From Giardia intestinalis (taxonomy: Eukaryota), in assembly GCA_000002435.2 (NCBI GenBank), contig CM018792.1: a stretch of 64,000 nucleotides of DNA; one strand, written 5' to 3'. Within the stretch, counting starts at the first letter, position 1, and every line of letters starts with the position of its first letter. The translations under genes were made by a program, and so were the position numbers. A model generated the notes under the pieces. That model searched no databases, was not told where the DNA came from, and was given only the letters and a program-made list of their open reading frames with translations. Of the stretch, positions 28,078 to 36,450 are shown in pieces.

Positions 28078-29374
28078 ATGGACACTGCCTTGTCTGGGTC
28101 TGCAACAACAGCTGTCAGTGTCCCACCGTTCACCCCTAGGGAGGTTCATGAGCGGTTAGGTGATGTGCTTAATGAAAACACCATGGGGACAGTCTACTCT
28201 CTCAAAGCTATCTGGGCCTCGCTGTAAAGGTCATTCAGCTTGGAGACCTGGACAAGGATGACGTGGAAATCATCAGACTAGAGCTGACCACCCTCCCCGA
28301 CCTCTCCAACCCAGGGGTTCTCAGGCACCACCAGGTGCTTACGGACGAGGGCTTCACCTACATCGTCATAGACCGCCACGACAAGACCCTCGAGCGCCTC
28401 CTTATAGAGCACAAACGAAGGAAGACTCTCATCCCTATCGCTGTGATCCTCTCCGCCATGAAGCAGGTCGCTGCCGCCCTCGCCTACCTCCACGGCCTCA
28501 GCGAGGTAAGTGCTAACAGGCTTGTCCACCGCGACCTCAGGCCTACCAGCATCCTTATCAGCGCAGACGGAGAGCGCTTCGTCATTGCTGATTTCGGCCT
28601 CTGTAAGGACGCCCTGTGGAGTGGGAGCACTCTCATGGGAATAATGGCGTACATGGCCCCCGAGGTGCTCCTCCGTAATGAGACCAGCCCTGCTTCCGAC
28701 GTGTGGAGCCTCGGGGTCATCCTCTACGAGATGGCCACTCTAAGGAAACCGGACTTCCTAGAAGGTAAAGACCCAGCAGAGGTCTTCGTGACGGGTGGAG
28801 GCCGGACCTGAGCGGTGTCACTGATGGCTTCATAAAGAGTGTTCTGGAGAGGATACTCGTGCTGGAGCCAGAGAGGAGGCCGATGGTCAGGGAGCTGCAC
28901 GAGACGCTCGCTACATTCGACATCCCAGTTAGTGAGCTGGGGCATCGGTGTGTGGCGCTAGAGGACAAGTGCAGCGCCTTGGAGACTGCGATGAGTAATA
29001 TTAATGACAGGATTGCTATTCTTGAGGCGGCCCTCGAGAGCAAGCCGACCAGGGACCGCGCCGAGCTCTGGATGCATCGATGGAGAGGAGCTCTTAGTAT
29101 GTTATCCACAACCAGCCATCGTCTCCGGACGGTCGAGAAGTGGGCGCAGCTTACCCATGAGACCTCTGAGCGCACCTGCAGGCGGGCCCAGCGATACAGC
29201 GACAGCAATGTACAGGAGTGCGCCCCGAACAATCACTCCACAAAGGTGCGTTCTGAGTCTGGCCCTCACCGATCCTGTTCCTATCGAAGCCAGGGGGAAC
29301 TGCGCTATCAGCCGACCTCTGGTGGGTGTGCTCCTATCTTGTCCTTCTCCAGTACAACTGATCAAGGAGAGTAA
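28078..29374 (+). pseudogene. NEK-like kinase paralog disrupted by at least two frameshifts (pseudogene, or assembly indels)
   Basis: Frame 1 reads MDTAL...RLGDVLNENTMGTVYSLKAI and then hits TAA at 28225. A second frame carries AVKVIQL...YIVIDRHD...AAALAYLHGLSE...LVHRDLRPTSILI...ADFGLCKD...YMAPEVL...DVWSLGVILYEM...AEVFVTGG. A third frame (from ~28793) carries GWRPDL...LVLEPERRPMVRELHETL plus a coiled coil. The colinear, intact paralog is the kinase at 18929-19855 (GWRPDLG...LVLEPERRL). Confidence 0.5.
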
Positions 29375-29447
29375 GAGCGGCTGTCTCTCACTGCTCGCGG
29401 CAACACACCAGCCTGACGGAAGAGCAGTGGCACGTGTACTCCGGCTA

Positions 29448-35583: not shown

Positions 35584-35767
35584 TCACTAGTGGTGCAGCT
35601 GCCTGACAAGCGGGTATGCCTCATATACTTCACCAGCCAGCCTGCAACTGGGAGCAGGGGTGGCCGCTCCCCTGCCCCCGAGCGTGCTCTGCACAGCGCC
35701 GTTGACACCGTCATGGCCGGGGACGGTGCACTCGATATTCCGTGTTCGCTCTTGACGAGCTGCATCG

Positions 35768-36450
35768 ATGCGAGGAGGGGTGCTTGATGTGGGCAGTTTT
35801 GGTACTGTCCATGCGATAGGTAGCTATCCAAGACTCAGAGTAGGAAGCTCACGGAGGCCACTGAAGTTGCGCTGGCCACCATTTCCAGACGCTCACACCC
35901 AGGCGTCATTAGGCACTACCGGATGCTCAGAGACGCTCACTCCATCGTCATCGTCATGGACCGCTGGGATCGGTGCCTCAAGATGTGATTGCCGATTGTG
36001 CAAGAACCGGTAACCCTACCGATACAGTGCTCTCCATCATGGAGCAGATCGCCATCATCCTCGCCTACCTTCACGACCCCGACAAGGTCGATGCCAGTAG
36101 AGATGGCAGGCTCAGCTCTTGCGGACTTCGGGCTCTGAAGGATGTCCTGCACAATGGGAGTGCCATTTTGGGAACCAAGCATACATGGCCCCCAAGACCC
36201 ACCTCAGGGGCGAGGCCGGCCCTACGTCAGACGTCGAGTCTTCGGTGCTATTGCCTATGAGCTCTTCACTTTCAAATGCCTGATCTCCTGGGAGCAGCAC
36301 CCGAGGAATGTCTTCGTTAATGGGTGGAAGCTCAGACTGAGTGCAGTTGAAGATGAGTTCACAAGAGCCTCGAGAAAGTGCTCACCAGACTATTCTAGGC
36401 ATTCAGTTCCTCTGCTAGTAGATGTAGTACTCGAGACGTGGACCGGGAAT
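35768..36450 (+). pseudogene. Decayed NEK-like kinase remnant, a paralog of the 28.1 kb copy, with multiple frameshifts
   Basis: Fragments are scattered over three frames: LDVGSFGTVHAIG (Gly loop); HPGVIRHYRMLRDAHSIVIVMDRWDRCLKM (compare NPGVLRHHQVLTDEGFTYIVIDRHDKTLERL); MEQIAIILAYLHDP (compare MKQVAAALAYLHGL); LADFGL; YMAPKTHL. No long ORF survives. Confidence 0.45.

Follow-up and report, generated by a model that had tools for sequence, protein, structure and literature searches.

Introduction

In Giardia intestinalis WB, the Nek-GL4 kinase subfamily has undergone rampant duplication and comprises 32 genes and 29 pseudogenes, the latter accounting for 29 of the 30 kinase pseudogenes of this isolate (PMC3218828). 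Pseudo-VSPs, of which 208 have been reported, are found in arrays and lack both a start codon and a signal peptide (PMC7000408), and the intergenic gaps of VSP linear arrays measure about 60 bp (PMC2996952). VSP, NEK and 21.1 genes share islands of high G+C located at synteny breaks (PMC2723961; PMC3091692), and in G. muris, NEK, ARP and zinc-finger genes lying between VSP pairs have been proposed as recombination anchors (PMC7641422). Linkage of VSPs, Neks and ankyrin-repeat genes at variable islands is already in the literature.

Here we analyse a window of 64,000 nucleotides from the 2.76-Mb chromosome of G. intestinalis WB, bracketed in that isolate by the proteins KAE8303965 and KAE8303972 (exact protein matches). 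Its central part is most probably a G+C-rich variable island between core genes, in which a VSP linear array bracketed by two unrelated dead Nek-GL4 copies preserves the traces of duplicated segments and of ectopic recombination or gene conversion between dispersed members of the VSP, Nek-GL4 and ankyrin-repeat families, rather than forming a working module.

Results

Layout of the island

The features of the locus are, in window coordinates:

18929-19855, minus strand: K0, intact Nek-GL1 (GL50803_86934), outside the VSP-flanking structure
26870-27775, plus strand: ARP-1, ankyrin-repeat-only gene, formerly 'protein 21.1' type (GL50803_112008)
28078-29045, plus strand: K1, truncated, frameshifted Nek-GL4 pseudogene (GK129/G104 in Manning 2011)
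28204-28205, plus strand: K1 frameshift 1, a loss of 1 bp after the Gly-loop and before the VAIK lysine
28788-28789, plus strand: K1 frameshift 2, a 1-bp deletion, WB-specific
29046-29195, no strand: junction of the truncated Nek with the VSP1 cassette, about 150 bp, without homologue among the compared loci
29196-29447, plus strand: conserved VSP1 5' flank, matching the independent VSP contig L013
29448-31829, plus strand: VSP1, intact VSP of 793 aa (KAE8303970.1)
31891-33660, plus strand: psiVSP2, VSP body with CRGKA tail, without ATG start or signal peptide
33716-35563, plus strand: psiVSP3, VSP body with CRGKA tail, without ATG start or signal peptide
35735-36450, plus strand: K2, heavily decayed short Nek-GL4 pseudogene (GL50803_15206/GK428)
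36991-37548, plus strand: Wos2/p23-like core gene, exact match to KAE8303971.1, the conserved right-hand edge of the island

VSP1, psiVSP2, psiVSP3, K1 and K2 all lie on the plus strand, and the G+C content of the island is 0.50-0.60 versus 0.42-0.47 in its flanks. An initial annotation of the window had described a VSP array bracketed by two decayed NEK copies with an ankyrin-repeat gene upstream, and this description is borne out on both counts: K1 and K2 are indeed Nek pseudogenes with the same orientation as the VSPs, and the upstream gene is GL50803_112008. Exact peptide strings from both kinases occur in the 'Nek-GL4 ... Pseudogene' rows of Table S1 in Manning et al. 2011, whose authors defined this subfamily, so that K1 (GK129) and K2 (GL50803_15206/GK428), both catalogued as pseudogenes in 2011, are already known. 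Exact look-up of the K1, K2, psiVSP2 and psiVSP3 ORFs in the protein collection found none of them, in agreement with their lack of protein annotation. Within the ORF-poor stretch at 22.5-26.9 kb, Pfam searches of ten ORFs and tblastn revealed no kinase, VSP or ARP-2 remnant.

The structure of the island differs among WB, DH, GS and P15. Core genes are 99.2-100% identical between WB and DH, depending on the segment, and the spacer at 36451-36990 is already at orthologue level (99.4%), while identity falls to 93.7% in K2, where the alignment has 36 gap columns, and to 84% at the 3' end of psiVSP3.

A linear array of one intact VSP and two pseudo-VSPs

VSP1 exactly matches KAE8303970.1, annotated 'VSP'; no other protein accession falls between ARP-1 and Wos2. 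It is recognized by Pfam VSP (E=8.6e-81) and carries all four VSP features, namely a signal peptide, a Cys-rich body, a transmembrane segment and the CRGKA tail. Six perfect 225-bp units make up 29511-30866 (Tandem Repeats Finder, 6.0 copies, 100%), and the 5' flank at 29196-29447 is 89% identical over 268 bp to the region upstream of a VSP1-like gene on ENA contig L013. Elsewhere, VSP1 has a near-identical paralogue, KAE8305104.1.

The two downstream members, psiVSP2 and psiVSP3, are likewise recognized by Pfam VSP (E=4.3e-28 and E=3.2e-41, respectively) and keep the VSP body, transmembrane segment and CRGKA. Their frames have in-frame stops at 31888 and 33713 and first ATGs at 32110 and 34922, respectively, and the lack of an ATG start and signal peptide makes both of them pseudo-VSPs. 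With gaps of about 61-67 bp between VSP1 and psiVSP2 and about 55-61 bp between psiVSP2 and psiVSP3, the three VSP bodies constitute a linear array as defined by Adam 2010 (at least two adjacent head-to-tail VSPs with gaps of about 60 bp). psiVSP2 and psiVSP3 share about 74% nucleotide identity, and self-comparison pairs 31712-32612 with 33543-34422; psiVSP3 is an old tandem paralogue of psiVSP2.

The upstream ankyrin-repeat gene and the intact kinase

The ARP-1 ORF matches Pfam Ank_2 (E=3.6e-27) and encodes 301 aa, compared with 225 aa in the current annotation. It is an exact match to XP_001706672.1, whose cluster also contains KAE8303969.1, 'Ankyrin repeat protein 1', and it is found directly 5' of a K1-type Nek on DH contigs L001, L011 and L012 as well as P15 contig L018. 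We also considered whether ARP-1 might be what is left of the C terminus of an upstream Nek, and dropped this reading, as the gene shows only generic ankyrin likeness (35% to P0054) and no kinase remnant lies upstream.

K0, an exact match to KAE8303967.1, is listed in Table S1 of Manning 2011 as 'Nek-GL1, 3:1:1, Active' and thus belongs to a different subfamily from K1. The colinearity of K1 with this kinase, as first described, stands in so far as tblastn with K0 as query covers K1 in two frames (28182-28796 in frame 3, then 28793-29041 in frame 2), but the kinase at 18929-19855 is a minus-strand gene of the GL1 subfamily.

K1 is a truncated and frameshifted Nek

The middle ORF of K1 (28263-28811) matches Pfam Pkinase (E=1.1e-28), and the best matches of the reconstructed protein are Giardia NEKs, at no more than 76% identity. 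Among these, its closest relatives are about 650-700 aa long and contain ankyrin repeats. What K1 retains is the kinase domain and the first part of the coiled coil: homology ends at about 29045 inside the coil, and neither its remainder nor the C-terminal ankyrin repeats carried by most K1-type relatives follow. Paralogue alignment and blastn place the end of kinase-family homology at about 29037-29046, and the extension of the kinase to 29374 in the initial annotation is therefore not upheld, 29196-29447 being the 5' flank of VSP1. In the intervening 29046-29195, a short-word blastn of 29000-29460 against all compared loci returned nothing.

The three reading frames noted earlier for K1, with shifts near 28215 and 28793, are explained by two 1-bp deletions, placed by paralogue alignment (A1 and A2) at 28204/28205 and 28788/28789. 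At the second, alignment A1 gives GTCTTCG-TGACGGG in WB versus GTCTTCGT[C/T]GACGGG in three DH copies. PacBio reads underlie the WB reference assembly, and homopolymer frameshifts were described in it by its authors prior to polishing (PMC7000408); this raises the question of whether both deletions are long-read assembly errors and K1 an intact kinase gene. However, the assembly was polished with 100x Illumina reads (PMC7000408), and no long homopolymer is present at either site; in particular, there is none at 28791-28797, where one had been suspected, the sequence at frameshift 2 reading TCGTGACGGGTGG with the absent base corresponding to the T/C of GT[T/C]GAC. Moreover, both positions are marked by 'x' in Manning's conceptual translation, the second as 'AEVFxDGWRPDL', and this translation derives from the 2007 assembly (GiardiaDB 2.3, Sanger-era). 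As GK129 carries the same two frameshift marks, the lesions are not assembly errors. Frameshift 1 is furthermore present in the syntenic copy of the independently sequenced DH (assemblage A2, contig L012), and being common to the DH orthologue it must be old. Finally, K1 lacks its C-terminal half regardless of the frameshifts. Since an earlier WB assembly has both lesions and DH has one of them, a sequencing indel is rejected as their cause, and an intact K1 is exceedingly improbable.

K1 as part of a mosaic ankyrin-Nek segment

The syntenic DH counterpart, L012, aligns to 18289-29030. Its K1 counterpart has an ORF of 648 aa that begins at an internal start and continues without interruption across the ankyrin repeats, and the Nek-Ank gene is followed by ARP-2 and then by a VSP 3' fragment. 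A DH Nek of 671 aa (P0026) had been considered as the K1 orthologue and was rejected, L012 being the syntenic contig. Contigs L012 and L001 do not overlap, and the DH picture rests on both. Truncated elements are found in both isolates, K1 in WB and 5'-truncated VSP fragments in DH. By comparison of the two, the truncation of K1 at about 29.04 kb, beside the VSP1 cassette, appears to be specific to WB.

The ARP-1/K1 segment shows mosaic identity to three DH copies: at 27378-27777, WB matches the non-syntenic L011 with 92-96% identity, compared with 79-95% for the syntenic L012. Close WB/DH identity likewise breaks down within ankyrin-repeat, Nek and VSP sequence. Both the mosaic and these breaks accord with the earlier suggestion of NEK sequences as recombination substrates. 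K1 probably represents the N-terminal half of a Nek-Ank gene from a dispersed unit with the order ARP-1, Nek-Ank, ARP-2.

K2, the probable remnant of a short Nek located after a VSP

None of three single ORFs of K2 has a Pfam match, and detection therefore required multi-frame tblastn with family proteins. These searches recovered colinear pieces in frames 2, 1, 3, 2 and 1 over 35735-36369, with summed E-values down to 2.6e-17 (64-kb search space). K2 is thus Nek-related and frameshifted, as proposed, but starts at about 35735 rather than 35768. Alignment A3 with intact P15 genes reveals that the reading frame changes at least four times and that the HRD catalytic loop has been lost in a deletion of 60 bp. 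GL50803_89815/GK450 is probably another reading of the K2 locus.

The K2-type relatives that are intact encode short proteins, 294-301 aa in length, which consist of the kinase only. On P15 contig L015, whose left side is syntenic, 102575 and a region matching 23.8-25.1 kb are followed by a VSP and by P0180, an intact Nek of 294 aa to which K2 aligns, and on L014 a VSP tail is likewise followed by an intact Nek. On this synteny, K2 is the positional orthologue of P0180, the intact short Nek after the VSP in P15. The WB and DH copies have both the 60-bp loss of the catalytic loop and several deletions of 1-2 bp in common, so that K2, judged by its shared lesions, had died before the A1/A2 split.

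Dead copies sharing the lesions of K2 lie 3' of VSP tails at three other WB loci, copies that are known solely from conceptual translations in a supplement. In these translations (Table S1), G111, G112 (K2), G114 and G115 agree in having the VSP tail out of frame and in their wrong-frame stop, and the catalytic-loop deletion is present in G112, G114 and G115, the three long enough to show it. K2 is thus probably the remnant of a short Nek that normally sits 3' of a VSP on the same strand, its loop and frame lost before the A1/A2 split, and the dead type may have been copied along with VSP segments.

K1 and K2 are not a duplicate pair

The occurrence of two Nek-GL4 remnants on the VSP strand, one at each end of the array, had suggested that a single segment consisting of a NEK and VSPs was duplicated locally, K1 and K2 being its decayed kinase copies. 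Alignment of K1, K2 and the kinase at 18929-19855 argues strongly against this reading: K1 and K2 are 39.9% identical in amino acids, no closer than K1 is to the GL1 Nek K0 (40.9%). At the nucleotide level, three local matches of 69-78% are found, and global identity is 56% versus 42% for shuffled sequence. In a neighbour-joining tree the two fall into different clades, K1 with P0017, P0001 and P0009 and K2 with P0179 and P0180, and their positional orthologues are separate, that of K2 in P15 and that of K1 in DH. K2 has far more lesions than K1 and had died before the A1/A2 split, whereas K1 has a truncation and one frameshift that are WB-specific. Furthermore, the 3' neighbour of K2 is Wos2, not a VSP. 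We accordingly give a local duplication hardly any credence, and K1 and K2 would instead be distant relatives left by gene-family shuffling within Nek-GL4, a subfamily of fast turnover.

Linkage of Neks to VSPs at other loci

This Nek subfamily is linked to VSPs and ankyrin-repeat genes at every related locus compared, on DH contigs L001 and L012 and P15 contigs L014-L017. A GL4-type Nek lies directly 3' of a VSP end on P15 L014-L017 and DH L001 and at WB G111, G112, G114 and G115, and on P15 L016 and L017 the order VSP, Nek, ARP is found on one strand with 92-bp gaps. This linkage was seen in a sample of about ten loci picked by similarity. Same-strand succession of VSP and Nek holds for four of the five P15 loci sampled and for four K2-type copies in WB.

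Such recurrent adjacency, the breakdown of WB/DH identity inside ankyrin-repeat, Nek and VSP sequence, and the proposal that NEKs and ARPs anchor recombination in G. muris (PMC7641422) could all be reconciled with Nek and ankyrin sequence beside VSPs being selected as functional cis elements, either homology tracts that mobilise VSPs or boundary or transcript elements. K2, however, gathers indels and has an A1-A2 divergence about 10-fold that of neighbouring core genes; it is missing in GS, at whose locus 306 bp separate a VSP1-like gene from Wos2; and no Rfam family match was obtained over 17-38 kb. Selection is, moreover, unnecessary for a sequence to act as a recombination substrate, and we consider a selected cis function improbable.

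A broader coupling is possible, though less likely than not: GL4 Neks may be coupled genome-wide to VSPs as ordered same-strand cassettes (VSP followed by short Nek, or VSP followed by Nek-Ank and ARP) kept between assemblages A and E, in which case the exceptional duplication and pseudogenisation of GL4 would follow from segmental duplications driven by VSPs, with the Nek and ankyrin tracts providing the homology that moves VSP cassettes between loci.

Discussion

The identities, lesions, synteny and mosaic pattern of the locus are observed directly, as is the earlier cataloguing of both kinases, while we infer the order of events, the copying of the dead K2 type along with VSP segments, and ectopic recombination as the cause. 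For the locus itself little is changed, the pseudogenes, array type and island type all being published. What is gained is a testable account of the fast turnover of Nek-GL4, the members of which adjoin VSPs in fixed order and orientation and are apparently co-copied even when dead. If this were true genome-wide, it would offer a handle on the origin of new VSP loci and on how the antigenic repertoire diversifies between isolates, and if the coupled-cassette reading were also true, antigen-repertoire evolution would be mechanistically tied to the oddest feature of the Giardia kinome.

Compared with the Nek-GL4 pseudogenes of Manning 2011 (Genome Biol 12:R66), K1 corresponds to G104/GK129, with the same frameshift marks, and K2 to G112/GL50803_15206/GK428. 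The available part of the Manning 2011 text draws no link between the pseudogenes and neighbouring VSPs, and in that part the shared lesions of K2-type copies and their start after a VSP tail pass unremarked. The array resembles those of Adam 2010 and of Xu, Jex & Svärd 2020 (Sci Data 7:38) in its head-to-tail order, gaps of about 60 bp and start-less downstream members; kinase and ankyrin terms occur 0 times in Adam 2010 (BMC Genomics 11:424), whereas the array described here is bounded on both sides by dead Neks. Like the variable islands of Franzén 2009, Jerlström-Hultqvist 2010 and Xu 2020, this one is rich in G+C and combines VSPs with Neks and an ARP. Those studies describe co-occurrence by gene category, whereas the present comparison reveals ordered units, one in which a VSP is followed by a short Nek and another in which ARP-1 is followed by Nek-Ank, ARP-2 and a VSP fragment.

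Organization of the VSP Locus

Seven ORFs of the window exactly match Giardia intestinalis WB (ATCC 50803; assemblage A1) proteins whose accessions run consecutively from KAE8303965 to KAE8303972 on a contig of 2,761,001 bp, and G+C content reaches 0.50-0.60 at 18-38 kb versus 0.42-0.47 in the flanks. The ankyrin-repeat gene that the initial annotation placed upstream of the array is GL50803_112008, and the only protein accession between it and Wos2 is KAE8303970.1 (VSP, 29448-31829); ORFs tried from K1, K2, psiVSP2 and psiVSP3 had no identical entry in the protein collection.

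Features of the locus (window positions)
18929-19855, minus strand: K0, intact kinase (KAE8303967 / GL50803_86934, exact match)
26870-27775: ORF 'Ankyrin repeat protein 1' (GL50803_112008, exact match)
28078-29045, plus strand: K1, Nek-GL4 pseudogene remnant
29448-31829, plus strand: VSP1, intact VSP
31891-33660, plus strand: psiVSP2, start-less VSP body
33716-35563, plus strand: psiVSP3, start-less VSP body
35735-36450, plus strand: K2, Nek-GL4 pseudogene remnant
36991, start: Wos2
37585, start: ribosomal protein L10

All three VSP bodies terminate in CRGKA. VSP1, with its annotated start at 29448, features a signal peptide and a 225-bp (75-aa) repeat unit present in 6.0 copies that are ~100% identical (29511-30866), while psiVSP2 and psiVSP3 are each immediately preceded by an in-frame stop and have no usable ATG. 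Three long mechanical ORFs, 29004-31829 (+, 941 aa, prolonging VSP1 upstream), 29102-30961 (-, 619 aa) and 29466-31145 (-, 559 aa), result from the absence of stops in the tandem repeat and from its upstream flank, and are not genes. On the 4.0-Mb chromosome, VSP1 has a paralogue of at least 90% identity in which the repeats are fewer (KAE8305104.1; 398 aa, previously annotated with 479 aa), and the VSP adjoining Wos2 in GS (assemblage B) has repeats homologous to those of VSP1 at 64-72% identity.

Upstream of the array, 22500-26870 (4.4 kb) holds no ORF above 190 aa, and Pfam, Rfam, kinase and VSP similarity searches of it were all empty; it is kept in DH (assemblage A2) at 88-100%, with 23696-25882 in two DH copies, and 23777-25069 has a counterpart in P15 (assemblage E) at 65%. 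In the hypothetical gene GL50803_102575 (20907-22418), whose protein gave no Pfam match, WB/DH identity falls to 67-77% over a ~400-bp patch (21480-21880) from 92-99% elsewhere in the gene, and this patch may reflect gene conversion or hypervariability.

Two Decayed Nek Kinases Flank the Array

The proposal that decayed NEK kinases bracket the VSPs is confirmed on both sides. At K1, the ORF 28263-28811 matches Pfam Pkinase (E=1.1e-28), the K0 protein aligns by tblastn to 28182-28796 and then in a different frame to 28793-29041, and the reconstructed protein best matches Giardia NEKs at 54-77% identity, many of which have 650-750 aa and carry ankyrin repeats at the C terminus. Single ORFs of K2 were empty in Pfam, and family proteins match it by tblastn as colinear pieces in frames 2, 1, 3, 2 and 1 across 35735-36369 (summed E to 2.6e-17); K2 is far more degraded than K1. 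Searching the supplement of Manning 2011 (PMC3218828) with K1 and K2 peptide strings identified K1 as G104/GK129 ('Nek-GL4, Pseudogene') and K2 as G112/GL50803_15206/GK428, with G881/GL50803_89815 probably another reading of the K2 locus. The same table lists K0, used initially as the comparison kinase, as an active Nek-GL1 (3:1:1, 'almost identical to two others'); it is indeed intact, but lies on the minus strand and differs in subfamily from K1 and K2. This chromosome also carries two further copies of GL50803_86934, KAE8304034 and KAE8304058, at least 90% identical to it.

The extent initially given to K1, 28078-29374, does not hold at its end. Kinase-derived sequence stops at ~29037-29046, and 29196-29447 is assigned to the VSP1 cassette and not to the kinase, given its 89% identity to the 5' flank of the VSP1-like gene carried by an unrelated ENA contig (L013, NODE_6876); none of the ~150 bp between the two was matched to other loci. 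On the ENA contig, from another isolate, an inverted 67-bp VSP 3'-end fragment (positions 25-91) adjoins this flank, whereas in WB the same VSP1-type flank adjoins the truncated Nek instead, indicating that different sequences have become attached upstream of one and the same VSP cassette.

When K1 is aligned to three DH paralogues, its frameshifts, initially placed near 28215 and 28793, resolve as 1-bp deletions at 28204/28205 and 28788/28789. A sequencing indel in the homopolymer at 28791-28797 had been suspected, but neither site is a real homopolymer. The GK129 translation carries frameshift marks at both sites ('…VYSLKxYLGLAVKV…' and '…AEVFxDGWRPDL…'; PMC3218828), its table being based on GiardiaDB release 2.3 and the window on a later, Illumina-corrected PacBio assembly (PMC7000408), and the first frameshift recurs with identical local sequence in the syntenic DH copy, so that an assembly artefact is very unlikely.

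K1 and K2 Fall in Separate Clades

Duplication and decay of a [NEK - VSPs] segment had been offered as one explanation for the flanking remnants. K1 is 39.9% identical to K2 in the family alignment (208 columns), and 40.9% identical to the GL1 kinase K0. The NJ tree places K1 with P0017, P0001 and P0009 of DH, and K2 with P0179 and P0180 of P15 on a deep branch apart from these. The proposed pairwise nucleotide comparison yielded three colinear local matches (69-78%) and 56% global identity, against 42±2.6% for shuffled sequence. Descent as a local duplicate pair is thus ruled out by protein identity, tree position and the weak nucleotide match.

K1 Belongs to a Dispersed Ankyrin-Nek Unit

The syntenic DH contig L012 aligns with 18289-29030 at 93% and holds, at the K1 position, a 648-aa ORF (P0017) that starts 3' of the shared frameshift and stays open through the ankyrin repeats, followed by ARP-2 (an Ank+zinc-finger gene) and a VSP 3' fragment; WB K1 has gained the second frameshift and has lost all sequence beyond the initial part of the coiled coil. 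The P0017 gene, noted together with L012 9740-10050, carries the annotation 'Serine/threonine protein kinase' and is listed as intact, with 648 aa. Because of its downstream start it is devoid of the Gly-loop and VAIK lysine, and it may itself be a disabled gene. Another unit, in which ARP-1 (the ankyrin-repeat gene type of 26870-27775) precedes a 671-aa Nek-Ank, ARP-2 and a VSP fragment, and then K2 and Wos2, is found on DH contig L001, and a third DH locus (L011) has ARP-1 followed by a 696-aa Nek-Ank. At 27378-27777 the identity of WB is 92-96% to the non-syntenic L011 and 79-95% to the syntenic L012, this preference switches round at 28572-28671, and core genes on both sides are 97-100% identical between WB and DH. 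Such mosaic identity is consistent with gene conversion and ectopic exchange between copies at scattered loci, supporting the alternative suggestion that NEK sequences act as recombination substrates, which is not new.

K2-Type Neks Were Probably Dead Before They Were Copied

The only intact close relatives of K2 found are two short P15 Neks (294 and 301 aa, ~50% identical), each directly 3' of a VSP in the same orientation. One P15 locus (L015) shows synteny to the window's left part and comprises the 102575 orthologue, the 23.8-25.1 kb match, one intact VSP and a Nek whose DNA aligns with 35746-36356, and K2 is therefore the positional orthologue of this Nek. Relative to the P15 genes, the WB and DH copies of K2 have in common several deletions of 1-2 bp and two larger ones, of 39 bp and of 60 bp, the latter removing the HRD catalytic loop, so K2 was dead before A1/A2 separation; a 28-bp deletion removing the VAIK region is specific to WB. 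WB/DH identity is 93.7% in K2 (36 gap columns) and 84% at the psiVSP3 3' end; it is 99.4% in the spacer 36451-36990 and 99.2-100% in the core genes that follow. GS lacks K2; there, 306 bp separate Wos2 from the end of a VSP1-like gene that has the same signal peptide as VSP1 and repeats homologous to its own.

Three more K2-type pseudogenes, from elsewhere in WB, are tabulated by Manning (GL50803_101380, 113450 and 106529; PMC3218828). Their translations start in the same out-of-frame VSP tail ('…SSAGGSSAG…'), which we checked to be the psiVSP3 C-terminus read out of frame, and have the same wrong-frame stop as K2; the catalytic-loop deletion is also present in 113450 and 106529, the two extending far enough. 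Most simply, these copies would derive from a Nek that was no longer functional when it was duplicated along with VSP 3' ends.

Comparison with Known VSP Loci

At two P15 loci (L016 and L017), a K1-type Nek follows a same-strand VSP at a distance of 92 bp and has an ankyrin gene after it, and in P15 also ARP-1 precedes a K1-type Nek on a short contig (L018). A VSP is directly upstream of the Nek at 4 of the 5 sampled P15 loci (three K1-type, two K2-type), a small sample chosen by similarity, and the generality of this linkage is a lead only. Neither an ordered same-strand unit of VSP followed by GL4 Nek nor the dead-before-copy behaviour of the K2 type was found stated in the literature compared. 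Linear VSP arrays with ~60-bp spacers were described by Adam 2010 (PMC2996952), without mention of kinases or ankyrin genes, and high-G+C indel islands with VSPs, NEKs and protein 21.1 by Franzén 2009 (PMC2723961) and Jerlström-Hultqvist 2010 (PMC3091692), while in G. muris NEK, ARP and zinc-finger genes between VSP pairs were suggested to be 'anchoring-points for recombination' (PMC7641422). Both the locus type and the recombination idea are therefore already published, and the locus is of an ordinary, already described kind, in which the coupling of GL4 Neks to VSPs is a modest lead.
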